DNA of 41,228 nucleotides from an uncultured Thermoanaerobaculia bacterium. GTDB lineage: Bacteria > Acidobacteriota > Thermoanaerobaculia > Thermoanaerobaculales > Sulfomarinibacteraceae. The notes under the pieces were generated by a model. It was not told the origin of the DNA, ran no database searches, and was given only the letters and a program-made list of their open reading frames with translations. The position numbers were made by a program, and so were the translations under genes. The DNA lies in assembly GCA_964497785.1 (NCBI GenBank), contig CAZCEX010000001.1, positions 1-41,228 of the forward strand, read 5' to 3'. Below, piece after piece: positions 2,082 through 40,190 of this stretch (positions within the stretch are counted from its first letter, which is position 1; each line of letters begins with the position of its first letter).

Positions 2082-2171
2082 GAATCGAAAATGAAGGGGA
2101 TGATGAAGCGATTGGACTGACGATACGGATCGACGTGGAGGTGGATCCTGCCGGATACGGGATGAGCAGAA

Positions 2172-3272
2172 TCAGTCCCAGGCTGCCAGATCACCTGATT
2201 CGAAATCGTCGAAGAAGATCCCAGAGGATATTTTGTAGATCGCGTCGTGCACGTCGAGACCGTGAAATGCCGCCAGGTAAAGACTGCCCTGGTGTAGTGT
2301 GAAAAAATAGGGGACCTGACCGTCTCCAATGAGGTGACTGAGTTCCTCCCAGCGACCTTTCGCAAGGTCATCCCATGTACGAAACCGGACCAACTTGAAG
2401 AGGTTGGGGTCGGATCCATTCGCGTAATAGGGAGAGAAGAAATTGGACACGTACCAGTAACCGTCGTAGAACTCGATGTCGTTGATGATAAAGCCGGTCG
2501 TATCCCAGGTACCGGCGGATGTGTTGACGAGCTTCCCAAAGCTGGGATGGATCATCACCTCCCCGGTGTCGAAATCAACGATCTCGATGACCTGGCCCCA
2601 GGACGACGACGCGACGTAGACTGTGTTTTCGACGACGGTCAGCCCACGCGAGTATTTGGCGAGTCCCGACAGGTCGAGGGCGCCCTCTTGTTCCCCAAAT
2701 CGTGTCATGCGTAGCAGCGACGGCCGATCAGGGTTGAGGACATAAAGGAATCCGCTGACCGGGTCGAATGCCACATCGTGAGGTCGGGCGAGGTCAACTC
2801 CGGCAACAGAGTACGCGCTTTCGATCTCTTCATCTTCCGGGTGGGAGAACGAAATGACTCGGTGATTCTCAGTGTCGGCGGCGTAGAAACGGGAGTTATT
2901 GAGATGGTAGGTGACTGCATGGGGGCCGTTTACGGCGATTGTGGAAACGATCCACTCGCCGAGAGTTTCCTCCGGTCGGTATGTAAACCGGTCATGAACA
3001 ACCTCGGAGATGATCTCGTAGCCCGAGCCGAAGAAGATGTGTGTTGGGAGATTGAGCGAGATCGACGTATTCGCCGGCGCGTACTCCTCAACGGCGAGTG
3101 AGAACGGGGGAGCGGACCGTGCCAGGTGGGGGCGGTGGAGTTCGGGGTCCACCGGGACGTAGATTCTTTCCTCCGGCCTGCGGTCGTCAGCCGAGGCCAC
3201 GCAGCTCACGAGGGCTGCGGTGATCAGCGCCATCCATTGACGAATCCAGAACGATTGATTCGCGAATCTCAA
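2172..3272 (-). CDS. Secreted hypothetical protein, probably beta-propeller fold (NHL/SMP-30-like impression only); carries the C-terminal FxDxFExG...W tail
   Basis: 366-aa ORF with signal-like N-terminus MRFANQSFWIRQWMALITAALVSCVASADD. Repeated beta-strand-rich segments. Ends ...GIFFDDFESGDLAAWD*. Confidence 0.6.
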   Translation of the reverse strand: MRFANQSFWIRQWMALITAALVSCVASADDRRPEERIYVPVDPELHRPHLARSAPPFSLAVEEYAPANTSISLNLPTHIFFGSGYEIISEVVHDRFTYRPEETLGEWIVSTIAVNGPHAVTYHLNNSRFYAADTENHRVISFSHPEDEEIESAYSVAGVDLARPHDVAFDPVSGFLYVLNPDRPSLLRMTRFGEQEGALDLSGLAKYSRGLTVVENTVYVASSSWGQVIEIVDFDTGEVMIHPSFGKLVNTSAGTWDTTGFIINDIEFYDGYWYVSNFFSPYYANGSDPNLFKLVRFRTWDDLAKGRWEELSHLIGDGQVPYFFTLHQGSLYLAAFHGLDVHDAIYKISSGIFFDDFESGDLAAWD

Positions 3273-3326
3273 ATGCCAATCCCCTCATCCGGGTGGTGGT
3301 TTACCCGCCGACAACCGCATTGAGCT

Positions 3327-4748
3327 ATGATATGCCGGAGGAGTCGATACTGCCAGGTGAAACGATGTACGCTGCTTAAAAAGACGAACAGATGGTGGCG
3401 GGTTGTTTGCCTGGTGATGGTTGTTTTCGTATGGCCAGCCGATCCCAGATCCTGGGCAGAAGACGGTCCGGAGGTGATTCGGGGGCCCTATTTGCAGTCG
3501 AATACGCCGCATTCGGTGGTTCTGCGTTGGAAAACCGACATTCCGACGGCGACGTGGCTGGCCTACGGTCCGCAACCAGACCAACTCGATTCCACAGTCA
3601 GCGATCCGGCTGTCTTGTTCGATCATGAGGTTTTGGTTGATGGGCTGACGGCTGCAACGGACTACTACTACGCTGTTGGGGCCGACTCCGTCGTTCTCGC
3701 AGGGGGGAACGAGCAGTTTTTCATCCGGTCGGCCCCTGTGGCGGGTGCCGCCGCCGCGACGTGGATCTGGGCTTTGGGCGATTCGGGGACGGCCAAAATT
3801 GGTGCTCGCCGGGTGCGCGATGCCTACCTGTCATTCGCCGGTTCGGGCGCGACGGACGTCTGGCTGATGATGGGGGACAACGCCTACCCATCCGGGACCG
3901 CAGAGGAGTATCAGGCAGCGGTCTTTGACACCTACTCGGAGGTGTTGATCAACACCCCATTGTGGCCTGCGATAGGTAACCACGACATATTGAGCTCGGA
4001 CTCACCGACCCAGACGGGGCCTTTCTTTGATTTTTTTACCCTTCCGGACGATGCTCAGGCCGGAGGTGCAGCGAGCGGAACCGAAGCCTATTACTCCTTC
4101 GATCACGGGCCTGTCCACTTCATCTGCCTTGATACCGCCGACTCGAGCATGGCCGAGGATGGTGCCATGATGAGTTGGCTTCGACAGGATTTGGCGCCAA
4201 ATCGGGGGGGCTGGGTCATCGCCTTCTTCCACCATCCTCCGTACTCGAAGGGGCAGCACGACTCCGACGACCCCGCCGACTCGAGCGGACTGATGTTTGA
4301 CGTGCGACAGATCGTGGTCCCGATCCTCGAAGAATACGGAGTTGATCTGGTTTTGGCGGGGCATAGCCACTCCTACGAACGGTCGATTCTCCTCGATGGA
4401 CACTATGGGACCTCGGTTACCTTCGATCCTGGGACAATGGGCCTTGACGTGGGAGATGGCCGCGAGGACGGCGACGGTCCCTACCGCAAGGTAGCTGGCG
4501 CACACGGAGGTGCGGTTTTCGTCGTCACCGGAAATGGGAGCAATCTCGGAGGTGGCACATTCGATCACCCGGTCATGGTTGTGAGTCTTCGAATCCTCGG
4601 TTCTGTTGCGCTTGCAATCGACGGGGATAAGCTCGACGCCTGGATGATCGACGCCGACGGGCAAATTTTGGACTGGTTCACGATCATCAAGACCCAGACC
4701 CTGTTTGCCGATGGTTTCGAGGACGGGTCAACGAGTGCCTGGATTTGA
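3327..4748 (+). CDS. Purple-acid-phosphatase-like metallophosphoesterase (calcineurin-like), secreted; carries the C-terminal tail
   Basis: All five PAP metal-ligand blocks occur in order: LGDSGT, MMGDNAY, AIGNHD, AFFHHPPY, LAGHSHSYER. N-terminal PAP-N-like segment GPYLQSNTPHSVVLRWKTD. Hydrophobic signal region WWRVVCLVMVVFVWPA. Ends ...TLFADGFEDGSTSAWI*. The exact start is uncertain (ATG 3327 versus a downstream GTG). Confidence 0.8.
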   Translation: MICRRSRYCQVKRCTLLKKTNRWWRVVCLVMVVFVWPADPRSWAEDGPEVIRGPYLQSNTPHSVVLRWKTDIPTATWLAYGPQPDQLDSTVSDPAVLFDHEVLVDGLTAATDYYYAVGADSVVLAGGNEQFFIRSAPVAGAAAATWIWALGDSGTAKIGARRVRDAYLSFAGSGATDVWLMMGDNAYPSGTAEEYQAAVFDTYSEVLINTPLWPAIGNHDILSSDSPTQTGPFFDFFTLPDDAQAGGAASGTEAYYSFDHGPVHFICLDTADSSMAEDGAMMSWLRQDLAPNRGGWVIAFFHHPPYSKGQHDSDDPADSSGLMFDVRQIVVPILEEYGVDLVLAGHSHSYERSILLDGHYGTSVTFDPGTMGLDVGDGREDGDGPYRKVAGAHGGAVFVVTGNGSNLGGGTFDHPVMVVSLRILGSVALAIDGDKLDAWMIDADGQILDWFTIIKTQTLFADGFEDGSTSAWI

Positions 4749-6650
4749 TGGTTCTCCGGCGCCCCGAATCGCCGAGATCTGCTGCTCGGCAAGTTCGCGA
4801 TAGCGAATTGCGTTCTTGTCCTGAGAGCCTTCGGTGACCTCGCGAAAACGCTCCAGGGCCTTGATCGCATCGTCCGGGCGGCCGAGGTCCAGGTAGGCGC
4901 GGGCGAGGTGGAACATCGACAGCTGGCAGGCGACCTTGAGGTCCGGGCCGACGACATCCCACAAGGATTCGAGCTCGGATACGGCCTCGGGCCTCTTTCC
5001 GGTGGCATAGAGCACACGGCCGAGCTCGGAGGTGAAACTGCATGTGCCATACGAGATGACCTCGCGACCGTGCCTGAGCACCTCGATCGCCTCGTCGAGC
5101 CGTCCCTGTTGCTGGTAGAGCGTTGCGAGCTGGGCGTGTGATTTCGGGTGCTCCGGACGCCCCTCGATGACCTTCTTGAGGTCGGCCTCGGCGTCGTCCA
5201 GACGTCGTTGTGCGAGGGCCACCTTCGATCGCCCGACGTAAGCGCTGATGAGGCCCTTGATCTCCAACGCCCGGTCGAAAGCCTCGTGGGCCTCGTCGAG
5301 CTTGCCGTCCGCGGTCAGAGCGTGACCGTACTGCGACCAACTGAATGCGGCGCCCGGGTCGGACTTTACTCCTTGCTCCCACAAGCTCAGATTCGATTTC
5401 CACGCTGCCGCATAGCTCGAGGTCTGAAAGCCGAGCACGGCGATGACAAGGGCACACGGAATCAACACCGCGGACGCAGGCAGGCGTACCGGGATTTTTG
5501 CGACCATTCTGGCTGCGAGAATCAGGAAGCCGAGCAAAGGAAGATAGAGGTAACGATCGTGCACGATGTGCTCTTCGATGAAAGCGGAGATGTTGAATGC
5601 CGGCAACAGGGGCAAGACCCACAGGGCAAGCCCGAATCGAGCGATACGATCTCGGCGTGCCAGCCAGAGAGCGGCGGCGATCGCGACAGCCACGACGAGG
5701 GTCGGGCCCCAGAAATTGGTCCATGTCGTTGTCTCAAGAGTCACGGGCCGCAGCGGGTAGGAGGGGCCGAGCCAGAGAGGGGAAAGAGTCTGGCGGAGAT
5801 AGAAAAAGGCGATCGATGGGGCAGTGAGCACGGTTTCTAGCCATCCCGCATCCCATTGCGGCTCGACCTGTGTTCTGCCGAGTACGACACGGCGGACGAC
5901 GAGCCAGACAGCAGCAATCGCGATGAAAGGGATCATTGCCCGCCAGGGTGCCTTGCGGTTCGCACGGTCTGTTTCGGAGCGACCGGCATCGACGGCGAAC
6001 GGGATCAACAGCGGGATGGCGATGGCGATCTCTTTGGCCAGCTGGGCAAGCGAGTATGCCAGCCACGAGAAAACGTTTTTCCACCACGCTGGGCGACGGT
6101 CCGTTGACATCACCAGAATCAACGCGGCGAAGGCGCCGATTCCGACGAGGATGTCGGGTGATCCGGAGATCCAGGCAACCGACTCGACGTGAACGGGGTG
6201 GACAGCAAAGATCGCTGCGAGCACGGCGGAGACGCCGCGTGAGGGGAATAGCCTGCGCAGAAGAAGGTAGGCCAGGATGCTGACCACGGCGTGCAACAGT
6301 ATGTTCGTGATGTGCCATCCACGGGCGGACTCGAGCCCGAACGTGCGTTCGTTGGCGACCAGCCAGAGCACGAACGCCGGCCTCCAGTAGTTGCTCCAGG
6401 CCTCGGTCTTGTCACCGGTGAAGGCCCAGACATCGGACGTCAGAGCCTTGCCGAGCAGCTCGGGGTTCTGGATGAGCTGGTTCTTGAGAATCTGGTCCGT
6501 ATCGTCGTAGACAAAGCCTCCGTCGAGGATGGCCCAGTAGCAGGCAAACGTGAGTACCATCAAGGCGAGAATGACTACGACATCGAGCCCGGAGAATGCG
6601 GACGTTCGTTCGATCGGTGGAGAGTCAGGGTTGGGGGTTGGTGATGTCAC
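4728..6650 (-). CDS. Polytopic GT-C-fold glycosyltransferase-like membrane protein (PMT/TMTC/ArnT-like) fused to C-terminal TPR repeats
   Basis: About 430 aa with many hydrophobic helices. First-loop acidic motif GGFVYDDTDQI is the DD/DE motif typical of GT-C enzymes. The C-terminal ~200 aa are TPR-like (AFSWSQYGHALTADGKLDEAHEAFDRALEI..., AQLATLYQQQGRLDEAIEVL..., LARAYLDLGRPDDAIKALERF). GTG start. The 3' end overlaps the convergent phosphatase gene by 21 bp. Confidence 0.7.
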   Translation of the reverse strand: MTSPTPNPDSPPIERTSAFSGLDVVVILALMVLTFACYWAILDGGFVYDDTDQILKNQLIQNPELLGKALTSDVWAFTGDKTEAWSNYWRPAFVLWLVANERTFGLESARGWHITNILLHAVVSILAYLLLRRLFPSRGVSAVLAAIFAVHPVHVESVAWISGSPDILVGIGAFAALILVMSTDRRPAWWKNVFSWLAYSLAQLAKEIAIAIPLLIPFAVDAGRSETDRANRKAPWRAMIPFIAIAAVWLVVRRVVLGRTQVEPQWDAGWLETVLTAPSIAFFYLRQTLSPLWLGPSYPLRPVTLETTTWTNFWGPTLVVAVAIAAALWLARRDRIARFGLALWVLPLLPAFNISAFIEEHIVHDRYLYLPLLGFLILAARMVAKIPVRLPASAVLIPCALVIAVLGFQTSSYAAAWKSNLSLWEQGVKSDPGAAFSWSQYGHALTADGKLDEAHEAFDRALEIKGLISAYVGRSKVALAQRRLDDAEADLKKVIEGRPEHPKSHAQLATLYQQQGRLDEAIEVLRHGREVISYGTCSFTSELGRVLYATGKRPEAVSELESLWDVVGPDLKVACQLSMFHLARAYLDLGRPDDAIKALERFREVTEGSQDKNAIRYRELAEQQISAIRGAGEPSNPGTR

Positions 6651-14002: not shown

Positions 14003-14236
14003 GCTCGGGGAATGGCAGGTCTCCTGGCTTCCGGATGTGATCTTTTTGGCCCAAGGCCTGAAAGATCCGCCGAACCGCCTCGCCTTCCCAGCTGGGTGTC
14101 ACCCAACCAGTGGCTGGCTCGACTCCGATTGTCGGAGCTCTGCCTCGAGTGGTTCGTCCCCGGTCACAGTGGCGGGGGCCGCGCCGGTTTCACACCGGCT
14201 TCCCTCACCCGACCGAAACGACCGACGGCGCCCGAT
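14003..14236 (-). promoter_or_regulatory. Cobalamin (B12) riboswitch in the leader of the BtuB-like gene
   Basis: Minus strand reads ...GGGTGAGGGAAGCCGGTGTGAAACCGGCGCGGCCCCCGCCACTGTGACCGGGGA...GCCACTGGTTGGG...CTGGGAAGGCG... This is followed by a textbook B12 box AGCCAGGAGACCTGCC (plus-strand 14014-14029), then the GGGAGG RBS and ATG. Confidence 0.9.
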
Positions 14237-14374
14237 TGCGCCTTGAGCCGCCCCGGCGGGCTCAACCATTCCCATTTGTCCCGGTCACAGTAGGTGCCTT
14301 GGGGCCCCGGGTCAAGAGGGCTGTGTTAGTGTTTGGCGGTCTTGGCGATTTATTTGGAGCGGCTCTTCGTGAAA

Positions 14375-16552
14375 ATGAAAATCATCCCCATCGTCCTCAC
14401 AGTTTTGTTTGTCATGGTGTTGCCGGCGGCAGCCCTGGATCTACTGCTCGTCGACGCTGACGGCGAGGGTCTCGCGGGCGCCCACGTGTCGGTGGTCGGT
14501 CAACCCGGGATCTGGGTTGCTGACCGAGAGGGTTTCCTGAATCTCGACCCGACACCGGAGCTGCCATTCGTTGTGATCGTCGCCCGTGCCGATGGCGTCG
14601 CACTGAGGCCGATCCCGGTGGTCGAGATCCCGAGCGAGGGCCGGATGACGCTCACGGTCGAGGGTATCGGCGGGACGGTGACTGTGATCGGCTCGGCGGT
14701 GCCGGATATCGAGCTGTCACCCGCCTCGGCGACGACCTTGATCGGCAAGAGTGATATCGAAGAGCGCGGTGCGACCAGTCTCTCCGATGTCCTGGAGACC
14801 GTTCCCGGAGTTGGTAGGACGGGGGAGGGCCACTCGGTTGTGCCGAGTCTGCGGGGTCTGCCCAAACACCGGACGCTGATCATTCTCGACGATGGCAGGG
14901 TGAGTACCGAACGCCGCGCAGGGCCATCCGGCACCTACCTCGATCCGGACACGCTCGATGAGGTCGAGGCGATCCGCGGACCGGGCTCGGTGGCGCATGG
15001 CTCGGATGCCTTCGGCGGGATCATTCGCGCACGATCACGCGCGCCACGGTTCAATATCGAGGGTGTCGAGGTCGATTATGCCGTACAGGGGGCGCAAGGC
15101 ACTCCGGGGTGGGGCGCAGCCGCCGATGTCACGATGCCGGCCGTCGGCGGGGGCTTCCTCCTCGGCGCCCAGGTGCGTGACTACGCGGACTACTCGAGCC
15201 CTGAGAGTGTGGTCCTGGATACTCGATGGGAGACATGGGGCGTGCGCGCCGGGTGGCAAGGCGTGGTTGGCAAAGGGGTGCTCCAGGTCGGGTGGAGGTC
15301 GGACCGCTCCGTTGACGTTGGCAAACCGAGCCCGGAATCGCACGTCAAACGGGTGTTCTACCCCATCGAGGACTCGGATCGGTTGAACATCCGTTTTGAG
15401 CAGCCGTTGCAGGGCAAATGGCAGAGGCTGTCGCTCAGCTTTGCGTGGGACGACTATCGGTTGGTGCTCGACAAGGACAATCTCGACGGAGCGGGTAACC
15501 CGGTCTCGAGGGCTCGGTCCGACACTGCAGCCAACGACTTCGACCTGCGGTTCGAGGCCGAGAGGTCCTTTGGCTCTGCTCGACTGGTGGTCGGGGCGAA
15601 TGTCAACGGTCGGTATGGCCTCGAGTCGACTCTGAGCGAGTACGCAGGCGGCAACGGTGGGCTCGAGGAGACATTGCGCGAGACGGCTATCGAGGAAGCA
15701 CGCGGAGGCAATGCCGGGATCTTTGCCGCCCTGAGTGGCGAGGTCGGTCGTTTTCGTCTGTCGGCCGGGCTTCGTGGGGATTCGGTGCAGAGTTCCAACT
15801 CGGGCGGGTATTTCGGAGACGTTTCGACCTCCGATTCTGATCTCGCCGGGTACGTGGCTGCAGCGTTGGATCTTGGTGCGGAAACCGATATCACGCTGCA
15901 GCTCGCACGTGGTTTCCGCTCTCCCCAACTGTCCGACCGTTACTATCGAGGCATTACGGGCCGCGGATTCATCACCGGAAACCCGTCTTTGGATCCGGAG
16001 ACGTCCCTCCAACTCGACGTGGCCTTCCATGCGCGCCGCGCCAGGTGGCAGCTCGGGGGCTATGCTTACCTCTATCGGATCCAGGATCTCATCGAACGCT
16101 ACAAGGACGACGGAAACTACTTTTTCCGCAATCGGGGTGAGGCGGAGATCCGTGGTATGGAGCTCGAGGCTGCACTCAACCTCGGGGGAACCACCTCTCT
16201 TCAACTCGGCGCCTGGTGGCTGCGCGGCGAGGTCCTGGACGACGGAATGCCGATGGATGATATTCCTGCGCCGGGTCTTTCGGTCGTACTCCGGGACGAC
16301 CGTTCCCACGGCATGCGGTGGATGCTGCGGGGCGCAGCGTATGCTCGCGATGACGACCCCGGTCCATCGGAACTCGTGACGCCCGGGTATGCGGTGCTGG
16401 ATGCCGCCGCGGGCTGGGCCTTTTCGGATGCGGTCCAGCTGCAACTGCTCGGCCGGAACCTGCTCGATCGGACCTACCCTGGATCTGCGGATGAGCAGGC
16501 CGTTTTGGCGCCGGGCAGATCATTCATGGTGACCCTGCGCGGGACGCTGTGA
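14375..16552 (+). CDS. TonB-dependent receptor with N-terminal carboxypeptidase-regulatory-like domain
   Basis: Signal MKIIPIVLTVLFVMVLPAAA. N-terminal segment LLLVDADGEGLAGAHVSVVGQPG. Plug blocks (TLIGKSDIEERGATSLSDVLETVPGV, LRGLPKHRTLIILDDGRV, IEAIRGPGSVAHGSDAFGGII). Long beta-barrel. Start chosen at ATG 14375; the track ORF begins at 14333. Confidence 0.8.
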   Translation: MKIIPIVLTVLFVMVLPAAALDLLLVDADGEGLAGAHVSVVGQPGIWVADREGFLNLDPTPELPFVVIVARADGVALRPIPVVEIPSEGRMTLTVEGIGGTVTVIGSAVPDIELSPASATTLIGKSDIEERGATSLSDVLETVPGVGRTGEGHSVVPSLRGLPKHRTLIILDDGRVSTERRAGPSGTYLDPDTLDEVEAIRGPGSVAHGSDAFGGIIRARSRAPRFNIEGVEVDYAVQGAQGTPGWGAAADVTMPAVGGGFLLGAQVRDYADYSSPESVVLDTRWETWGVRAGWQGVVGKGVLQVGWRSDRSVDVGKPSPESHVKRVFYPIEDSDRLNIRFEQPLQGKWQRLSLSFAWDDYRLVLDKDNLDGAGNPVSRARSDTAANDFDLRFEAERSFGSARLVVGANVNGRYGLESTLSEYAGGNGGLEETLRETAIEEARGGNAGIFAALSGEVGRFRLSAGLRGDSVQSSNSGGYFGDVSTSDSDLAGYVAAALDLGAETDITLQLARGFRSPQLSDRYYRGITGRGFITGNPSLDPETSLQLDVAFHARRARWQLGGYAYLYRIQDLIERYKDDGNYFFRNRGEAEIRGMELEAALNLGGTTSLQLGAWWLRGEVLDDGMPMDDIPAPGLSVVLRDDRSHGMRWMLRGAAYARDDDPGPSELVTPGYAVLDAAAGWAFSDAVQLQLLGRNLLDRTYPGSADEQAVLAPGRSFMVTLRGTL

Positions 16553-27452: not shown

Positions 27453-27494
27453 TTGACATTCCTTGGAATTGCGTCGATGATCGTTTTGTTAAAT
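27453..27494 (+). promoter_or_regulatory. Possible promoter region of the cus-type operon, with a short dyad
   Basis: TTGACA (27453-27458) is followed immediately by the dyad ATTCC-TT-GGAAT. Weak -10 candidates are GATGAT (17-bp spacing) or TAAATT further down. The segment is locally AT-rich. Pattern match only. Confidence 0.25.
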
Positions 27495-27501
27495 TGAACG
27501 T

Positions 27502-27903
27502 ATGAGCAAACGATCGATTATTTTCCGCGCCCTCCTCGTCGCCATTGCCGTATCGGCTATGGTGATCGGCCCGGTTATGGCTGGGTCTTCCCGGTCCTGT
27601 ATGGAGGTGGCACCCTGTTGTTCGGTTCAGCCCGAGATCGAGCAAGGGTGTTGCGGGCAGGATCATCCGGCTGACGATCCAGGGTCGAGAAGACACGATC
27701 TGTGTGACTGCGACCACGGCTCCGGACCGGTCGCGGTGTCCGCGGCTATTTCGAGTACCCCGACTGAAACCCTGATGATCGGGGCGGTTTCCCAGGACAT
27801 CGAAGTTGCTGCGCTGGTGCGGGTTGAATCTCCGGACATGGATGAGTATCGCGGTCCACCGGGTCCATCGCTCTTCCTGCTCGACTGTACCTTCCTGATC
27901 TGA
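27502..27903 (+). CDS. Small secreted Cys/His-rich protein, first gene of the cus-type operon (unknown function)
   Basis: Signal MSKRSIIFRALLVAIAVSAMVIGPVMAG. Then SSRSCMEVAPCCSVQPEIEQGCCGQDHPADDPGSRRHDLCDCDHGSG. Same strand as the TolC-family gene and 75 bp upstream of it. I recognise no family. Confidence 0.55.
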   Translation: MSKRSIIFRALLVAIAVSAMVIGPVMAGSSRSCMEVAPCCSVQPEIEQGCCGQDHPADDPGSRRHDLCDCDHGSGPVAVSAAISSTPTETLMIGAVSQDIEVAALVRVESPDMDEYRGPPGPSLFLLDCTFLI

Positions 27904-27977: not shown

Positions 27978-29354
27978 ATGAATAGAAGAACGCTCTTCAT
28001 ACATACGATTTTCGTCGTATTGGTGATGGGTATAACATCGGTTGGGAGGGCGCGCGGGGCGGATTCGGTTCCCCCGGACCTCCCCGCGAGTGGGTGGCAG
28101 GCGGATCCGGCGGCAGCGATCATCGAAGGTCTCGCTGACGCGGATCTCCAGCTCTTAGCGTGGGAGGTCTTGGACCGCAACCCGGGCCTTGCCGCGGCGG
28201 TAGCTGACGCGCGGGCTGCGAGTGCGAGGACTGCGCAGCGACAGAGCCTGCCCGACCCGATGCTCGCCGTCACCTGGTTCGCCATGAGTCCGCAAACGAG
28301 GGTCGGTCCGCAGAAAGCTGGCGTGAGTCTTGCGCAACGCCTGCCGTGGTTCGGCAAGCTCGATCTCCAGGGCAGGGCGGCGGCCCTTGACGCGATTGCC
28401 GCCGACGCGCGGGTCGAGGCATTGAAGATCGAGCTGCTGACGCGAACCCGCACCCTGCACCAGGAGCTTCTCTTCGAGGACGTTCAGGAGCAGATCTTAG
28501 ACGAAGAGCGTTCGGCGTTGGAGAGGTTCGAGGAGTTGGCTCGTGCTCGCTACGCATCAGGTGCCGGGCACCGGCAGGCGGTCGTCAAGCTGCAGGCGGA
28601 GATCACCCGCGCCGACGCCCGTCGGTTGGGCATCGATCAGCGGCGCGCCGAGCTGACTGCGGCCGTCAACGTTCTGAGAGATCTCTCTTCGCACACGGCT
28701 GTGCGCCTCGCACGCGGGGACCGGCATTTCGATCTCCCTGTCGACCTTGTTTTCCTGCGAACCAGAGCGGTTGTCGCCCGTCCTGAAGTAACGGCTGCCG
28801 ACGCCGAGGTGGCTGCGGCTGACGTCAGGGTTCAACTCGCGGCAAAACGGCGATCCCCGGACGTCACGGTCGGACTGAGCTACGGGTTCGTGGGGCGTCG
28901 TGACGACGCAGCCGGTGAGGCAAACCCACCGCAGGGAAACGGCAACGACATCCTTGCCCTCAGCGGGGGGATCAACCTGCCGGTGTGGTCCAAGGCTCTC
29001 GACGCCGGCGTCGAGGAGACGGTGCAGAAACGTCTTTCTGCCGAAGAACGACGGCGAGCGGTCATCGCCGTGATCGAGGGTGAGCTCGGTGACGTCGCTC
29101 GGCGTATCCCCGTCATGCGCGAACAGCTCGAGCTCTTTGAGCAGACCTTGCTCGTGCAGGCCCGGGAGAGCCTGCATTCGGCTGAAATCGCCTATGCGTC
29201 CGGCACGGGGGGCGCGCTCGACCTGCTCGACGCCGAGAGGACGCTCCATGAGATCCGGCTCGGTGCCGAGCGCACCCGTGCCGACCTCGCGATTGCCCGA
29301 GCGCGTCTTGAGGGCGTGATTGCTGGACCGCTTGTAATGGATTGGGAGGACTGA
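27978..29354 (+). CDS. cusC: TolC-family outer-membrane efflux factor (CusC/CzcC-like)
   Basis: Signal peptide, then two-fold repeated coiled-coil/beta pattern (LSLPDPMLAVTW..., TVGLSYGF..., ARARLEGVIAGPL). Its stop overlaps the next gene's ATG (TGATG). GGAGGA RBS. Confidence 0.8.
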   Translation: MNRRTLFIHTIFVVLVMGITSVGRARGADSVPPDLPASGWQADPAAAIIEGLADADLQLLAWEVLDRNPGLAAAVADARAASARTAQRQSLPDPMLAVTWFAMSPQTRVGPQKAGVSLAQRLPWFGKLDLQGRAAALDAIAADARVEALKIELLTRTRTLHQELLFEDVQEQILDEERSALERFEELARARYASGAGHRQAVVKLQAEITRADARRLGIDQRRAELTAAVNVLRDLSSHTAVRLARGDRHFDLPVDLVFLRTRAVVARPEVTAADAEVAAADVRVQLAAKRRSPDVTVGLSYGFVGRRDDAAGEANPPQGNGNDILALSGGINLPVWSKALDAGVEETVQKRLSAEERRRAVIAVIEGELGDVARRIPVMREQLELFEQTLLVQARESLHSAEIAYASGTGGALDLLDAERTLHEIRLGAERTRADLAIARARLEGVIAGPLVMDWED

Positions 29355-30712
29355 TGTTACACAACAACGAGATGGAAGCCGCGCCTCCCGGTGCAGGCGT
29401 TCGAAGAGTCCTCCTTCCCCTACTGTGGATAACGCTTGGGGGCGTGATCGTGCTCGGTCTTCTGATGTTCTTCGGGCTTGTTGAAAGACCTGACGCCGTC
29501 GACGGACAAACGGAGTCCGTCTGGACCTGCCCGATGCACCCGGAGGTCATCGCCGAGGAGCCTGGGTCGTGTCCGATATGCGGCATGGATCTTGTACCCG
29601 TGAGCCGCTCGACGGACTCCGGAGCCATGCCGCCGACGCACGAATCAGGTGGCGACCACGGGGCGGTGGTGACCATCGATGCGGCGACGCACCAGAACAT
29701 GAATGTGACGACCGCGCGCGCCGAGCGCAGGGACATCAACCATCGCATCCGAACGGTCGGTTATCTGGACTACGACCAGGAGCGAATGCACTCGGTGACC
29801 ACCAAGTTTTCGGGATTCATCGAGAAGACCTTTGTGAGCTCCATCGGCCAGTCGGTGGTCAAGGGTGAACCACTGTTCGAGGTCTACTCGCCGGATCTGG
29901 TGCAAACACAGCAGGAGCTGCTGACGGCGAAGAAGTACGCCGACCAGATGGCCGGAACCGGGGCCGATGCGCATGGGCGCGCTGTTGCCCTGCTCGAGGC
30001 GGCGCGGGAACGGCTCGCCTACTGGGACGTCGCTCCTGAGCAGATTTTGCACCTCGAAGAGACCGGAGTCGTGCAGCGCACCCTGCAGGTGGTTGCCCCG
30101 GCAACCGGCCTCATCATGAAGCGTCTTCCGGGGCTCGAGGGCATGGCGGTTCATCCCGGCCTGGATCTCCTGCACATTGCCGACATTTCGAGGTTGTGGC
30201 TCAACGTCGACGTCTTCGAGGAACAGCTGTGGTGGTTGCAGATCGGCAGCCGGGCAGAGATCACGATGGCCTACTTCCCCGGCAAGGCTTTCACCGCAAG
30301 GGTGCGCTTCATCGAGCCCGAGGTGTCCGAGGAGACGAGATCCATTCGCCTGACGCTCGACGTTGCCAACCGCAACCACCAGCTGCGGGTCGGCATGTAT
30401 GCCACCGTGGTCTTCGAACCGACCGCAGCCGCGAGTGCCATCACCGTGCCTTCGAGCGCTGTGCTCCGCACCGGCGAACGCAGCGTCGTGATCGTTGTTC
30501 TCGGCGAGGGGCGTTTCGCCCCGCGCGAGGTGGCGCTGGGGCCCGAAGGTGAGGGCTTTGTGCAGGTTCTCGAGGGCCTCGACGAGGGCGATCAGATCGT
30601 CACCTCGGCCCAGTTCCTCATCGACTCCGAGTCGAACCTGCAGGAGGCGATCCAGAAAATGACCGCCGGGCGCGGAGCTTCGGGCCCCCAGGGCCACGCG
30701 CACGGGAGCTGA
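29354..30712 (+). CDS. cusB: RND efflux periplasmic adaptor (CusB-like) with N-terminal CxxC-type heavy-metal-binding domain
   Basis: WTCPMHPEVIAEEPGSCPICGMDLVPV is the metal-binding module seen at the N-terminus of Cu/Ag-type MFPs. MFP blocks follow (GEPLFEVYSPDLVQTQQELL, VPSSAVLRTGERSVVIV, GDQIVTSAQFLIDSESNL). ATG 29354 is preferred over the track's TTG 29342 because a GGGAGGA RBS precedes it and it is coupled to the upstream stop. Confidence 0.85.
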   Translation: MLHNNEMEAAPPGAGVRRVLLPLLWITLGGVIVLGLLMFFGLVERPDAVDGQTESVWTCPMHPEVIAEEPGSCPICGMDLVPVSRSTDSGAMPPTHESGGDHGAVVTIDAATHQNMNVTTARAERRDINHRIRTVGYLDYDQERMHSVTTKFSGFIEKTFVSSIGQSVVKGEPLFEVYSPDLVQTQQELLTAKKYADQMAGTGADAHGRAVALLEAARERLAYWDVAPEQILHLEETGVVQRTLQVVAPATGLIMKRLPGLEGMAVHPGLDLLHIADISRLWLNVDVFEEQLWWLQIGSRAEITMAYFPGKAFTARVRFIEPEVSEETRSIRLTLDVANRNHQLRVGMYATVVFEPTAAASAITVPSSAVLRTGERSVVIVVLGEGRFAPREVALGPEGEGFVQVLEGLDEGDQIVTSAQFLIDSESNLQEAIQKMTAGRGASGPQGHAHGS

Positions 30713-30746: not shown

Positions 30747-33700
30747 ATGTTGAGCAAGATCATCGAGTGGTCGCTGCGCAATCGCCTCATCGTCGTGCTC
30801 GGTGTGGTCTTCTCCCTGCTCGGCGGTGTCTGGGCGCTGCGGGGGATGCGCCTCGACGCCATTCCCGACCTCTCCGACGTGCAGGTCATCATCTATACCG
30901 AATACCCGGGACAGGCCCCTCAGATCATCGAGGACCAGGTGACCTATCCGATGGCTTCCAAAATGCTGTCGGTTCCTTTTGCCAAGGTCGTGCGCGGATA
31001 CTCCTTCTTCGGTTTCTCATTCGTCTACGTGATCTTCGAGGACGGCACCGATCTTTACTGGGCCAGGTCGCGGGTGCTCGAGTACCTCAACGGGCTCGCC
31101 GGTCAGCTACCGGCCGGAGTGACGCCTCAGCTCGGACCCGACGCGACGGGGGTCGGCTGGGCCTTCATGTACGTGCTCAACTCGAACGAACGGTCGCTCG
31201 CAGATCTGCGGTCGCTGCAGGATTGGTACCTCAAGTACGGGCTCATTTCGGTCGAAGGAGTGTCCGAGGTGGCGTCGATCGGCGGCTTCGTGCGCCAGTA
31301 CCAGGTCGAGATCGACCCGGTTCGGGCCCGAGCCTTCGGTATATCGCTTGCCGATGTCAAACGAGCGATTCAACGATCCAACAACGATGTTGGTGGGCGA
31401 TTGCTGGAGATGGGGGAGCGTGAGTACGTCGTACGCGGCCTCGGCTACATCAAAGAGATCAAGGACCTCGAGACCATTCCGCTTGCGGTCGGGCCAGGGG
31501 GCGCGCCGCTGCTGCTCAAGGACGTCGCCAATATCGGCATCGGACCGGAGATCCGGCGCGGTGTCGCCGAATGGAACGGACAGGGGGAGACGGTCGGGGG
31601 CATCGTCGTCGTGCGCTCGGGCGCCGACACCCTGTCGACGATCGCCCGGGTCAAGGAGCGTCTCGCCGAGCTCAAGGACGGCCTGCCCGACGACGTCGAG
31701 ATCTCGGTCGCTTACGACCGCACGACGCTGATCCAGAGCTCGATCAAGACGCTCACACGCACTCTCGTCGAGGAGTCGATCATCGTCGCCCTCGTCTGTA
31801 TTCTCTTTCTCTTCCACTTTCGCTCGGCTTTCGTGGCGATTTTTTCTATACCGGTGTCGATCCTGCTCGCGTTCATCGTCATGAAGATGCAGGGTCTCGG
31901 CGCCAACATCATGTCGCTCGGGGGCATTGCGATCTCGATCGGCGTGCTCGTCGACGCCTCGATCATCATGGTGGAGAACGCCCACAAGCACTACGAGGAG
32001 TGGCACGGCAAACGCAGCCACTTCGAGATCATCTTGCGATCGGCCCAGGAGGTCGGACCGACCCTCTTTTTCAGCCTGTTGCTGATGACCGTGTCCTTCA
32101 TACCGGTCTTCAGCCTGCAGGCGCAGGAGGGCAGGCTCTTCACCCCGCTGGCATTCACCAAGACCTACTCGGTGGCCATGGCGTCGATCGTCGCGATCAC
32201 AGTCATCCCGGTGCTGATGTTCTGGTTCGTTCGCGGGCGTATCCGCAGCGAAGAGAAGCACCCCGTTTCTCGTCTGCTGCGCTTCATCTATGGGCCGGTA
32301 CTGGCGGTGGTTCTCAGGGGGCGGTGGGTGGTCGTGATCCTCGCCATCATCGCCATCCTGTCGGTATGGATACCGTTGCAGCACATCGGATCGGAGTTCA
32401 TGCCGCCGCTGTGGGAAGGCGACCTGCTCTACATGCCGACGACCTTCCCGGGGATCTCCATCACCAAGGCCAAGGAGCTCCTGCAGCAGACCGACAAGAT
32501 CATCAAGACGTTTCCAGAGGTGGAGTCGGTGATGGGCAAGATCGGGCGGGCGGAGACCGCGACCGATCCGGCGCCCTTGTCGATGATCGAGACCACGATC
32601 GTGCTCAAGGACCCCTCCGAGTGGCGTGAGGGCATGACGAAGGAGAAGCTCATCGAGGAGCTCGACCGGTCGATCCAGTTTCCCGGTCTCACGAACGCGT
32701 GGACGATGCCTATCAAGACCCGCATCGACATGCTTTCGACCGGCATCAAGACCCCGGTCGGCATCAAGATCGGCGGCCCGGATCTCGTCGTTCTCGAGCG
32801 TCTGGGGAAGGAGGTCGAGGCCCTCGTCAAGCCTCTCCCGGGCACGCTTTCTGCCTATGCTGAACGGGTCATGGGCGGCACCTACCTGGACCTCGACATC
32901 GACCGCGAGGCTGCTGCCCGCCACGGCCTCACGGTCGGCGATGTGCAGGACGTCATCACCTCGGCGATCGGGGGCATGAACGTCGGCTGGACCGTCGAAG
33001 GCCTCGAGCGCTACCCGATCAACATCCGTTACCCGCGTGAGCTGCGGGACAACGTTGAAGCACTCGGCGCCACCCTGGTGCCGACGCCCTCCGGAGCTCA
33101 GGTGCCGCTGGCGCAGCTTGCAGATATTCGATTTCAACAAGGGCCACCGGCCATCAAGTCGGAGAATGCACGGCCCAACGCCTGGGTCTACGTTGATCTG
33201 CGTGGCATCGATGTCGGGACGTGGGTAGAAAGAGCGCGCCGCGAGGTCGCCGACAATATCGACCTGCCGCCTGGATATACGATCTTCTGGTCCGGCCAGT
33301 ACGAGTACATGCAACGGGCCAGGGCACGCCTGCTCCTGATCGTGCCCATCACGCTGCTGCTCGTCTTCCTCATCCTCTACCTCAATACCGGGAGCCTGGT
33401 GAAGACCGGCATCGTGCTGCTCGCGGTGCCGTTTTCGGCCGTGGGCGCCGTCTGGCTCATCTACCTGCTCGGCTACAACTGGTCGATCGCCGTTTGGGTC
33501 GGGCTCATCGCCCTCGCCGGGCTCGACGCGGAGACTGGCGTCGTCATGCTGCTCTACCTCGACCTGGCCTACGAGAAGTGGAAAGAAAAGGGTCGAATGG
33601 CCACGTGGAAGGACCTGGCCGAGGCTGTTGACCACGGCGCCGTGCAGCGCATCCGGCCAAAGACCATGACCGTCGTGACGACCTTTCTCGCGCTCGTGCC

Positions 33701-33929
33701 CATCCTGTGGGCCACCGGAACGGGCGCCGACGTCATGCGGCGTATTGCGGCGCCGATGGTCGGCGGGATCGTGACCTCCTTCGCTGGTGAGCTCGTCGTC
33801 TACCCGGCGATCTACTTCATCTGGCGTTCTCTCGGATTACAACGCGGCCCGCTCAGCTGGCGGCGCCGCAACGATGAATTGACCGAACAACGACCGGCGG
33901 AAGCCGGTCTGAATGGAGAAGAGTCATGA
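30747..33929 (+). CDS. cusA: CusA-type heavy-metal efflux RND pump (Cu(I)/Ag(I) class)
   Basis: 1060 aa with 12-TM RND layout. TM4 block GGIAISIGVLVDASIIMVENAHKH is CusA-like rather than the CzcA DFG...DGAVV type. The contexts of the three E. coli CusA metal-binding methionines, as I recall them, are retained: DLLYMPTT, APLSMIETT, RIDMLSTGIKTPVGIK. Confidence 0.9.
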   Translation: MLSKIIEWSLRNRLIVVLGVVFSLLGGVWALRGMRLDAIPDLSDVQVIIYTEYPGQAPQIIEDQVTYPMASKMLSVPFAKVVRGYSFFGFSFVYVIFEDGTDLYWARSRVLEYLNGLAGQLPAGVTPQLGPDATGVGWAFMYVLNSNERSLADLRSLQDWYLKYGLISVEGVSEVASIGGFVRQYQVEIDPVRARAFGISLADVKRAIQRSNNDVGGRLLEMGEREYVVRGLGYIKEIKDLETIPLAVGPGGAPLLLKDVANIGIGPEIRRGVAEWNGQGETVGGIVVVRSGADTLSTIARVKERLAELKDGLPDDVEISVAYDRTTLIQSSIKTLTRTLVEESIIVALVCILFLFHFRSAFVAIFSIPVSILLAFIVMKMQGLGANIMSLGGIAISIGVLVDASIIMVENAHKHYEEWHGKRSHFEIILRSAQEVGPTLFFSLLLMTVSFIPVFSLQAQEGRLFTPLAFTKTYSVAMASIVAITVIPVLMFWFVRGRIRSEEKHPVSRLLRFIYGPVLAVVLRGRWVVVILAIIAILSVWIPLQHIGSEFMPPLWEGDLLYMPTTFPGISITKAKELLQQTDKIIKTFPEVESVMGKIGRAETATDPAPLSMIETTIVLKDPSEWREGMTKEKLIEELDRSIQFPGLTNAWTMPIKTRIDMLSTGIKTPVGIKIGGPDLVVLERLGKEVEALVKPLPGTLSAYAERVMGGTYLDLDIDREAAARHGLTVGDVQDVITSAIGGMNVGWTVEGLERYPINIRYPRELRDNVEALGATLVPTPSGAQVPLAQLADIRFQQGPPAIKSENARPNAWVYVDLRGIDVGTWVERARREVADNIDLPPGYTIFWSGQYEYMQRARARLLLIVPITLLLVFLILYLNTGSLVKTGIVLLAVPFSAVGAVWLIYLLGYNWSIAVWVGLIALAGLDAETGVVMLLYLDLAYEKWKEKGRMATWKDLAEAVDHGAVQRIRPKTMTVVTTFLALVPILWATGTGADVMRRIAAPMVGGIVTSFAGELVVYPAIYFIWRSLGLQRGPLSWRRRNDELTEQRPAEAGLNGEES

Positions 33930-34627
33930 GACGTTTTCTAGTTTTGTGTGTGGTTTTGGCCCTTCCGACGACCGGAGGACTATGGGCCCAGGGCCATGGC
34001 GGTATGGGTGGACAGATGATGGGGGGCTCCGGATCGGTGGTTGTCGCCGACGATGGCAGCTTGCTCCTGAATGAAATGGACCAAGGTGGAATGATGGGAG
34101 GAGGTGAGCTCTTGCGGGAACTTGTCAACATCTCCGCCGATGGCGAAGAGCGTTGGCGGGTGTCGTTCGAGGACGGTTGGCCGATGATGCCCGTCACCGA
34201 AGGCGATCTGGTGGTCGTCGTGCTCGTCGACGACTGGTTTGTCGTCGGCGACGGCTCCGGCGACTGGGGCTGGGGTGACGGACACGGCGGCGGAGGACCG
34301 GGAACCGGAGAGGCCGGCGAGGCGGCGATTGTCGCTCTCGATCTGGCAACCGGCGTTGAGCGGTGGCGGACCGATGTGACGGGCGCCATGGCATCGATGA
34401 CTCAGTTCAGTCCCGATGGTTCGCGGCTCTACGTCACCGTGCGCGGCTCGAGCTCCATGGGCGGTGGACACGGCGATGACCCGATCCGCCAGGGCGACGC
34501 CTCCGATGGCCGTTTCCTGATGTCGACGACCATTGCCGCCTTCGACAGGCAGGGTCACGAGCTCTGGACCTATGACAGTTCCTCGGGAGGTATGGGTGGA
34601 GGCCCGGTTGTTGAAGGAGGCGTGTGA
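33926..34627 (+). CDS. Secreted Met/Gly/His-rich protein with beta-propeller-blade-like segments, translationally coupled to cusA (unknown; candidate periplasmic Cu(I) binder)
   Basis: Its ATG overlaps the cusA stop (ATGA). Signal MRRFLVLCVVLALPTTGGLWA. Motifs GHGGMGGQMMGGSG, QGGMMGGGE, GDGHGGGGPG, SSMGGGHGDD and SSGGMGGGP are interspersed with PQQ/BamB-like strands (IVALDLATGVERWRTDV, AAFDRQGHELWTYD). Confidence 0.6.
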   Translation: MRRFLVLCVVLALPTTGGLWAQGHGGMGGQMMGGSGSVVVADDGSLLLNEMDQGGMMGGGELLRELVNISADGEERWRVSFEDGWPMMPVTEGDLVVVVLVDDWFVVGDGSGDWGWGDGHGGGGPGTGEAGEAAIVALDLATGVERWRTDVTGAMASMTQFSPDGSRLYVTVRGSSSMGGGHGDDPIRQGDASDGRFLMSTTIAAFDRQGHELWTYDSSSGGMGGGPVVEGGV

Positions 34628-35409
34628 TGCGCACGACCGTCGCCGTTCTCGGTCTCGTATTGCTCTGCTCCGCCGTTTCTCCAGCACTGGCTGCCTCGGG
34701 CCACACCGAGGGATACGTGCCCGCAGTGGCCCACGCCGAAGGCAGGTTCGGTTCGATGTGGACATCCGACGTGTGGGTCTACCATCAGGGTGCAGGAACA
34801 GTGCACCTGTGGTTCAACCCGGCCGGCAATGACAACGCCGACAACCAGAGCATTGCCGTGAGTCTCGATCGACCCGTGACGGTACTCAAGGATGTCGTTG
34901 GAAGCCTGTTTTCGACGGACGGTGTGGGGAGCCTGCACTACATCGCGGACGGACCGGTGACCGTTGTCTCGCGGACCTGGACGCCTGGGGCTTCTGGTGA
35001 CGGCACCTACGGACAGACGATCCAGGGTGTGCCCATAACCGCAGCTGCGCCGGGTGGTGCAGGTCAGGCAGTGGGCACCATGCGAATGCTCATCGACTAC
35101 AGGCCTGGATTCCGGACGAACCTGGGGCTGGTCAACGTGTCACCGAACTCGGTTTCGGTCCTTGTCGAGATCTTCACTGCCGACGGGCAGAGTGTTTCGA
35201 GCGCGTCGTCGTTCTCGGTCGACCTGGCGCCTTTTGGGATGAGGCAGGTCAACGACGTCTTTGCGTCGCTCGGGATCGAGGGTGTTGAGACCCTCATCGT
35301 CCGCGCTGGAGTGGAGTCGGGAAACGGTTCGATTCTGGCCTACCTCTCGGAGGTCGACAATACGACCAACGACGCGTCGTACCAGGAGGGTTTCAGGTTC
35401 GGTTTCTGA
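34624..35409 (+). CDS. Secreted hypothetical protein (beta-rich), last gene of the cus-type operon
   Basis: Start (GTG 34624 or ATG 34627) overlaps the upstream stop. Signal MMRTTVAVLGLVLLCSAVSPALA. Then YVPAVAHAEGRFGSMWTSDVWVYHQG..., a pattern I have seen in uncharacterised secreted proteins of environmental bacteria. Ends ...YQEGFRFGF*. Confidence 0.55.
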   Translation: MMRTTVAVLGLVLLCSAVSPALAASGHTEGYVPAVAHAEGRFGSMWTSDVWVYHQGAGTVHLWFNPAGNDNADNQSIAVSLDRPVTVLKDVVGSLFSTDGVGSLHYIADGPVTVVSRTWTPGASGDGTYGQTIQGVPITAAAPGGAGQAVGTMRMLIDYRPGFRTNLGLVNVSPNSVSVLVEIFTADGQSVSSASSFSVDLAPFGMRQVNDVFASLGIEGVETLIVRAGVESGNGSILAYLSEVDNTTNDASYQEGFRFGF

Positions 35410-39791: not shown

Positions 39792-40190
39792 ATGGAAATT
39801 CGCTACGCTGTCGTCAAGGAGTATCCCGAGCTCGATTATCCCGACGCTGTGGAGCAGGTCACCGAGGCGCTGAAAACGGAGGGTTTCGGTGTGCTCACCG
39901 AAATCGACGTCAAAGCGACCCTCAAGAAGAAGATCGACGTCGATTTTAAGCGGTACGTGATCCTCGGTGCATGTAACCCTGAGCTCGCTCATCAGGCCCT
40001 TTCCGGTGAGCCGATGATCGGCGTCCTCCTGCCCTGCAACGTTATCGTTATGGACCGGGATGGTGGCGGATCCATCGTCGCAGCCTTCAAACCGACCGCT
40101 GCCTTCGCACTCGTCGACAACCCCGATGTCGACCCGATCGCGCAGGAGGTTGAAGGTCGGCTGCGGAGGGTGCTGGAGCTGGTCGGCTGA
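39792..40190 (+). CDS. DUF302 domain protein
   Basis: MEIRYAVVKEYPELDYPDAVEQVTEALKTEGFGVLTEIDVKATLKKKIDVDFKRYVILGACNPELAHQAL...LLPCNVIV is the characteristic DUF302 pattern. AGGAGG RBS lies 5 nt upstream of this ATG. The track's upstream start (39552) adds a low-complexity extension with no RBS. Confidence 0.8.
   Translation: MEIRYAVVKEYPELDYPDAVEQVTEALKTEGFGVLTEIDVKATLKKKIDVDFKRYVILGACNPELAHQALSGEPMIGVLLPCNVIVMDRDGGGSIVAAFKPTAAFALVDNPDVDPIAQEVEGRLRRVLELVG

Follow-up and report, generated by a model that had tools for sequence, protein, structure and literature searches.

A methionine-rich propeller fragment and its partner as putative Cu(I)/Ag(I)-binding accessories at copper-export loci of the Thermoanaerobaculales

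Periplasmic copper handling is known chiefly from Proteobacteria, through CusF, PcoE/SilE and CueO. CusF, a small protein exported by the Sec route, is encoded together with cusCBA; it is a five-stranded OB barrel with one defined site whose ligands are Met and Trp, placed between the output of CopA and the intake of CusB/CusA. The Met/His proteins PcoE and SilE are intrinsically disordered; in CueO, the Met-rich region is an insert in a multicopper oxidase. Met-rich periplasmic segments such as that of CueO are established recruiters of Cu(I) (PMC11494321). Here we describe a protein that resembles these systems in part and is built on a different scaffold. It is encoded by the open reading frame (ORF) at 33926-34627 on the forward strand of a stretch of 41,228 nucleotides (the window) from an uncultured Thermoanaerobaculia bacterium (GenBank assembly GCA_964497785.1, contig CAZCEX010000001.1), directly behind the gene for an orthologue of the Cu(I)/Ag(I) pump CusA. 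We refer to this protein as the target and to the product of the next ORF (34627-35409, same strand) as the partner. With a confidence that is a little above even, we propose that target and partner form a putative periplasmic accessory that binds Cu(I)/Ag(I) through thioethers, serves as a buffer or relay and is optional for the pump.

The likeness to CusF lies in small size, Sec export, an association with cusCBA genes, Met as the (here proposed) ligand and a likely place, again, between CopA output and CusB/CusA intake. However, the target is a propeller fragment with about 20 Met rather than a barrel with a single site, it has an obligate second protein and it is not consistently found in the cus operon; the CusF_Ec profile gave no match to the target in a full Pfam scan, and the two proteins have no kinship of sequence or fold. 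The target resembles PcoE, SilE and CueO's Met-rich domain in its flexible, Met-rich and largely disordered periplasmic segments and in its association with copper resistance, and it is likely to bind several metal ions with moderate affinity. It differs from them in that its Met loops sit at equivalent places in the blades of a folded propeller, in its low His content and in the lack of an oxidase domain. The target combines features of the class of Met-rich Cu(I)/Ag(I) binders (a signal peptide, Met clusters of the MM or MxM type in exposed segments, and linkage to copper loci) with a fold related to that of other proteins altogether. BamB and the PQQ_2 proteins share its [VI]xAxDxxxGxExW hairpin repeat, but BamB is an eight-bladed lipoprotein of about 390 residues that belongs to the BAM complex, whereas the target has three blades, Met/Gly inserts and a place in copper-efflux loci. 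The short PQQ-type arrays among designed propellers, namely the two- and three-blade Pizza fragments and Cake2-Cake10 (derived from 3hxj), are like the target unable to close alone, but they are artificial and have no metal-resistance context. The initial annotation of this locus had suspected that a propeller with Met/His loops tied to a pump was undescribed, and a literature search found no published description of the target family.

Fold and methionine pattern of the target

Each of the 89 family members matches the Pfam model PQQ_2 (PF13360) at E<=0.01, the lowest value being 4e-11; the copy in the window scores 26.2 bits, slightly below the gathering cut-off of 27.6. An AlphaFold2 model of the target, computed from an alignment of the 89 sequences (predicted local distance difference test, pLDDT, 73.5; predicted template modelling score, pTM, 0.69; 96 residues above 90), has a confident core of 12 strands in three groups of four. 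Its low-confidence segments are the Gly/Met stretches at residues 1-31, 108-127 and 224-233, with pLDDT below 50 up to residue 31 and within residues 108-127. In a Foldseek search of this model against the PDB, the top 50 matches were nearly all large beta-propellers at partial coverage (query template modelling score, TMq, at most 0.48), among them CylK, tetrathionate hydrolase, PQQ dehydrogenases and BamB; when the family profile was searched against the PDB, the best matches were to the Cake propellers, which are designed PQQ-type proteins, and to 3hxj, the template of these designs, while BamB matched weakly. As modelled, then, the target is a three-blade propeller fragment of the PQQ/BamB type, within the PQQ_2 superfamily and distinct from BamB. 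The description of the protein as propeller-like in the initial annotation is borne out by the Pfam matches, the modelled core and the structural neighbours, except that the protein amounts to a three-blade fragment and not to a whole propeller. Identity with BamB or another lipoprotein assembly factor was considered and rejected, given a TIGR03300 score of 17.7 bits against a cut-off of 285, the lack of a lipobox and only three blades in 233 residues. The names carried by target homologues in databases, such as 'BamB' or 'PQQ-binding-like', are repeat-level matches only.

The three blades can be read directly from the translation, in which every loop and strand peptide quoted by the initial annotation is found. 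Blade 1 consists of the A-B strand pair VVVADDGSLLLNEM, the insert GGMMGGGE and the C-D pair LVNISADGEERWRVSF; blade 2 of VTEGDLVVVVLV, a long loop and IVALDLATGVERWRTDV; and blade 3 of FSPDGSRLYVTV, an insert that reads SSMGGGHG...QGDA... and IAAFDRQGHELWTYD. The Met/Gly inserts thus fill one equivalent slot, the B-C loop, in three of three blades. In propellers the B-C and D-A loops share the 'top' face, which is the usual ligand side, and since the conserved Met residues of the target lie largely in these loops they should come to stand on one face of the propeller, as deduced from this topology.

Three blades cannot close a ring, so it is plausible by analogy that the target is an oligomer, for example a dimer with six blades or a trimer with nine. 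There is a precedent among designed proteins, in which propeller fragments of two or three blades assemble by themselves into closed propellers (bioRxiv 10.1101/2021.04.12.439409).

The target family is rich in Met and Gly (9.4% and 21.1% of residues in the 89-sequence alignment) and poor in His (1.0%) and Cys (0.1%). For comparison, Met makes up 1.07% of residues in 56 generic PQQ-type propellers and 1.9% in the proteins that neighbour the target in the window. The pattern is not one of chance low complexity: Met accounts for at least 50% of the residues in about 20 alignment columns, all of them within tails, B-C and D-A loops or strand ends, and several of these are fixed positions. Conservation of Met reaches 93% at M51 and M56, 98% at M57, 99% at M87, 97% at M88 and 99% at M155. 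Gly/Met loops do alternate with propeller strands, as the initial annotation had noticed, and this arrangement is conserved across the 89 homologues. The annotation's description of the protein as His-rich, however, does not hold, the window copy having 4 His.

Region by region, the N-terminal Gly/Met tail (QGHGGMGGQMMGGSGS, residues 22-37, 33989-34036) has a family mean of 3.8 Met and 9.2 Gly. The B-C loop of blade 1 (residues 54-61, 34085-34108), with M56 and M57, has a mean of 1.9 Met, that of blade 2, a long Gly-rich insert (residues 102-131, 34229-34318), a mean of 3.0, and that of blade 3 (SSMGGGHGDDPIRQGDASDGRFL, residues 176-198, 34451-34519) a mean of 2.3; the last also contains a Q189-G190-D motif in which Q189 is invariant and G190 nearly so. 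A nearly invariant segment is the D-A loop between blades 1 and 2 (FEDGWPMMP, residues 81-89, 34166-34192; mean 2.0 Met), which is nine residues long in 89 of 89 sequences, with W85 conserved in more than 90%, P86 invariant and Met at positions 87 and 88 in 97-99%. The A-B strand pairs of blades 1 and 3 contribute further means of 2.3 and 3.1 Met, and the C-D hairpins are nearly free of Met (0.0-0.4).

A search of 5.8 billion protein clusters returned at least 226 clusters of target homologues (E<=1e-3). Those listed, 120 in number, have lengths of 189-253 residues and identities of 45-62% and are nearly all metagenomic; the only names on homologue clusters are pipeline labels. In an exhaustive HMMER search of 1.84 billion representatives just 33 of the target family fell below 1e-10, and next in the ranking came generic multi-blade PQQ-type propellers, aligned solely to target residues ~122-175, which argues that the family is compact and distinct.

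The target begins with a short Sec-type signal peptide, as the initial annotation had seen (MRRFLVLCVVLALPTTGGLWA, residues 1-21, 33926-33988), cut after LWA and followed by QG in the mature protein; the family consensus reads ...AFA before the cut and HGG after it. The target has no lipobox (L-[AS]-[GA]-C). From the conservation of this signal peptide in the family we infer export to the periplasm. Tat export was also considered; the window copy starts MRRFLV, but its relatives have KR, RK or RN at this place, and since the twin Arg is not conserved among them Tat export is unlikely and Sec export is assumed.

Copper exporters, the partner and neighbouring genes

In the window, the ATG of the target gene (33926-33928) overlaps the TGA (33927-33929) of the resistance-nodulation-division (RND) gene at 30747-33929 (tcATGa, 33926-33929), just as initially annotated, and a Shine-Dalgarno sequence, GGAG, lies at 33915-33918, 7 nt ahead of the ATG. 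The RND gene (forward strand, 1060 codons, ACR_tran E=2e-216) encodes an orthologue of the Cu(I)/Ag(I) pump CusA: its product scores 1165 bits against E. coli CusA versus 553 against ZneA, and Met occupies all three positions that correspond to M573, M623 and M672. This setting recurs in related loci, which we collected by exact-protein look-up and by a scan of GTDB species genomes and annotated by tblastn (20 non-redundant loci). In 19 of these, a CusA orthologue, a P-type ATPase or both are encoded within 10 kb upstream of the target on the same strand. The CusA orthologues of these loci range from 54 to 85% in identity. The ATPase checked, that of locus L001, has the CPC, YN and MxxSS motifs and two heavy-metal-binding domains (HMBDs), the signature of a P1B-1 Cu(I) transporter, and genes for YHS, DUF2231 and DUF302 proteins are recurrent neighbours. 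Target and CusA share a contig in 20 genomes, with a median gap of 2.7 kb. Among the 77 genomes of the window's GTDB family, CusA orthologues occur in 56, that is in 26 of the 30 genomes with the target and in 30 of the 47 without it (Fisher one-sided p=0.024). Thus, the tie to Cu(I)/Ag(I) export claimed by the initial annotation is upheld both in the window, by a CusA with its Met triad directly upstream, and across the loci.

This linkage also bears on the question of whether the methionines might serve a purpose other than metal binding. MrpX of Azospira, a periplasmic Met-rich peptide, provides a model for a sacrificial antioxidant sink that is repaired by methionine sulfoxide reductase, and the high surface Met content of a periplasmic protein, together with the oxidative nature of copper stress, fits such a role. 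However, the linkage is to Cu(I) exporters, no gene of the MsrP/MsrQ type (Oxidored_molyb) is present in any annotated locus, and a sink needs neither conserved Met positions nor a partner. We regard an oxidant sink as very improbable.

The conserved genetic link of the target, omitted by the initial annotation, is its partner of about 260 residues. In the window the stop codon of the target gene overlaps the ATG of the partner gene (TGATG, 34625-34629), for which a Shine-Dalgarno sequence, AAGGAGG, is found at 34614-34620. In 19 of the 19 loci with downstream DNA, the gene that comes directly after that of the target, and on its strand, is the partner gene, and the two mostly overlap by 1 nt; partner orthologues (E<1e-74) adjoin the target in 29 of 29 testable genomes. 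The protein (secreted, 260 residues in the window) has no Pfam family. It is predicted to be all-beta, apparently two sandwiches (AlphaFold2, pLDDT 78.6); Foldseek gives weak tandem beta-sandwich matches only (FnIII- or RbmA-like, template modelling score about 0.2), and a profile search of the PDB found nothing. Its family comprises 259 homologue clusters at 55-64% identity, with a mean column identity of 71%. The core domain of the partner is expanded in this lineage: a single genome may give as many as ~30 matches at E<1e-10, which frequently lie in tandem inside long ORFs. The domain has no Pfam model except for faint DUF5719 hits, and it is represented in L024, L025 and L026 as well. A paralogue from the same genome (L024, contig C446) has 438 residues, with an extra N-terminal domain of about 200 residues, and keeps the GGH...YQEAFQF ends. 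A His-brace Cu(II) site at the mature N-terminus of the partner was considered in view of an invariant G-H, but the GGH of the paralogue is internal, behind its 200-residue N-terminal domain; the cleavage register of the partner is ambiguous, and the His brace is a weak lead at most.

Upstream of cusA in the window, on the same strand, lie genes for a CusB-like membrane fusion protein (29342-30712; HlyD_D23 E=2e-65, HMBD E=2e-15), in which the HMBD module (CxxC) sits after an N-terminal membrane anchor, and for a CusC-like outer membrane factor (27978-29354; OEP E=5e-29). The operon is headed by a small ORF for a Cys/His-rich secreted protein (27502-27903), and its sole promoter-like site is at 27453-27481. 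Since this first ORF has no tblastn match in any related locus and is thus found in the window only, it stands outside the conserved module. A DUF302 gene (39798-40175) lies 4.4 kb downstream of the target-partner pair, beyond dcp and beta-helix genes; it is 71% identical to the DUF302 gene directly after the pair in L003, which has counterparts close by in L002, L009, L010 and L017, and its displaced position in the window hints at a rearranged copper island.

Several peculiarities were seen in the copper operons and target genes of other loci. In L001, an unannotated gene for about 363 residues (3376-4467) that belongs to no Pfam family lies between the cusB-like and cusA-like genes; sequences that match it in part are found ahead of the cusA-like gene in L005 (4112-4555) and L017 (306-857). 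L005 also has a single gene call for 990 residues (1143-4115) with OEP, HMBD and CusB domains, which is either a fusion of outer membrane factor and membrane fusion protein or a merged call. In L022 (10001-11313), from an Acidobacteriota metagenome-assembled genome, only residues 35-104 of the target are matched and the partner is split in two frames; the genes for CusCBA and the ATPase upstream are intact, and the pair itself seems to consist of pseudogenes or to reflect an assembly error. L003 encodes a second target copy (14062-14787, equal to G409:C4:48304-48981), 40% identical and Met/Gly/His-rich (241 residues, 18 Met, 7 His), 3.3 kb downstream of the first pair, past a kinase and two response regulators, and without a partner.

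The proposed role weighed against other explanations

How might target and partner act together as a thioether-based accessory? The B-C inserts, the GWPMMP D-A loop and the N-terminal tail would present about 20 conserved Met thioethers on one face of the target, and this face would bind Cu(I) and Ag(I). Together with its beta-sandwich partner, the target would capture Cu(I) that the P1B-1 ATPase delivers or that enters the periplasm, and the ion would stay bound until CusCBA expels it. The target could in this way fill part of the role of CusF, PcoE or SilE.

It is also conceivable that the arrangement is far more specific, with target subunits closing into a homo-oligomeric propeller, for example a trimeric nine-bladed ring that matches the three-fold symmetry of CusA and CusC, docks on the export machinery and, through its Met-lined top face and the partner, funnels Cu(I) from the P1B ATPase to CusCBA. 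Such a ring would be a structurally new class of periplasmic metallochaperone that replaces CusF in the Thermoanaerobaculales, and it would show that propellers are put together from fragments in nature as well. We consider this elaborate version unlikely.

A number of observations speak against a thioether-based accessory and account for our restrained confidence in it. Most of the Met-bearing loops are predicted to be disordered and of low complexity, and the placement of the conserved Met on one face is deduced from propeller topology. The window copy is Met-poor for its family (14 Met versus a mean of 22, range 12-32), and its longest loop, the B-C loop of blade 2, holds no Met at all, with W, H and D instead. 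Translational coupling to cusA, as claimed by the initial annotation, is real in the window but specific to it: elsewhere the target gene follows an ATPase gene by ~60 nt or heads its own unit, past a divergent gene or a 437-nt gap, so that the coupling is not conserved. At one locus (L012, whose contig ends right after the target) the 8.3 kb upstream hold a desaturase and a MacB-like permease and no copper genes. The pump is able to do without the pair, since 30 of the 56 genomes with CusA lack the target, which makes the pair an optional accessory. Among divergent relatives, Met-poor forms with 4% Met (L030) and 2.6% Met (L034) keep the partner, indicating that the pairing of scaffold and partner is independent of Met richness, and the Met-rich relative P0263 (L032) is isolated, with a transposase gene beside it. 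A strict correlation between Met richness and copper context is thus borne out only in part. As to the possibility, raised by the initial annotation itself, that homologues would prove to lie away from metal genes with their loops lost, the core family keeps both its copper context and its Met loops; at the periphery, scaffold and partner can be paired with few Met. The Met-poor relative P0247 is one that keeps the partner, and a fragment upstream of it carries a YCPM motif, which we take to be typical of a copper-associated family. In L030 the His26 that is invariant elsewhere is replaced by Asn in the partner of the Met-poor target (4174-4959), and the two proteins may, judging by this single case, have lost their metal-binding features jointly.

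The dispensability of the pair is also what would be expected if the target simply soaked up metal. Acting, in the manner of PcoE or SilE, purely as a sponge for Cu(I)/Ag(I), it would provide stoichiometric first-line buffering without any specific hand-over to CusB, CusA or the partner. The many Met within flexible Gly loops suit this explanation, as does the fact that the gene is often outside the pump operon and able to start its own transcription unit. However, a folded scaffold that is highly conserved, a near-invariant GWPMMP loop and strict co-inheritance with the partner suggest interactions of greater specificity than a disordered sponge would call for, and since our preferred reading spans buffering as well as relay, it overlaps with a sponge to begin with. 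In its pure form, we think a sponge rather unlikely.

The divergent relatives invite yet another explanation, in which target and partner constitute a signalling or scaffold accessory, an interaction module for nearby histidine kinases or FecR-like proteins, with the Met/Gly loops as flexible linkers or a metal-sensing switch rather than a transport intermediate. Propellers are typical interaction platforms, and genes for a histidine kinase and a response regulator flank the pair in L003, L006 and L030. A partner-less subfamily of the target (L028, L035 and L037) always follows a gene for a FecR-like protein of about 250 residues, and divergently oriented genes for a CHASE2 histidine kinase and a sigma-54 response regulator lie opposite its members at L028 and L035 (the L037 contig ends earlier). 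Two of these three members are Met-poor; that of L035 directly follows a CusA 83% identical to the window's own. The Met-poor variants that retain the partner would fit a signalling module too. However, two-component systems commonly flank copper loci anyway, there is no adjacent kinase in the window, L001, L002 or L005, and a role as linkers leaves the position-specific conservation of Met on one face unexplained. A signalling role thus appears quite improbable, and a thioether-based accessory of the copper exporters is the explanation that we retain.

Taxonomic range, absence of CusF and significance

The target appears confined to a narrow lineage. In a sample of 401 genomes across the phylum it was found in 3 of the 4 genomes from the window's GTDB family and in 0 of the 397 others. 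The window genome itself (4.5 Mb, 92% complete) has one copy. Of the 77 genomes and 24 genera of this GTDB family, which belongs to the Thermoanaerobaculales, 30 and 14, respectively, have the target, with a patchy distribution inside genera, and the related loci are assigned to Thermoanaerobaculia, Thermoanaerobaculales and Ca. Sulfomarinibacteraceae. A tblastn search of 72,556 plasmids gave no match to the target. CusF (PF11604) was detected in 0 of the 77 genomes, the window genome included, by a search that does find CusF in the E. coli and Caulobacter controls. The target may fill part of the CusF/PcoE/SilE role because the GTDB family is without CusF; however, a complementary distribution of target and CusF does not discriminate here, since CusF is absent from all 77 genomes, with or without the target.

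If the proposed role is correct, the target would add a new scaffold to the thioether binders of Cu(I)/Ag(I), and a function could be assigned to two families, each of a few hundred clusters at 90% identity, that are now labelled 'BamB', 'PQQ-binding-like' or 'hypothetical'. It would also be an incomplete propeller found in nature, one that presumably forms a closed ring as an oligomer. In practical terms the gain is modest: metal-resistance loci in metagenomes from sediment and soil could be annotated better. For the biology of these bacteria, the target family suggests that a little-studied, largely uncultured acidobacterial lineage devoid of CusF, apparently by placing Met loops on a propeller fragment and pairing this with a second secreted protein, has solved periplasmic copper handling differently.

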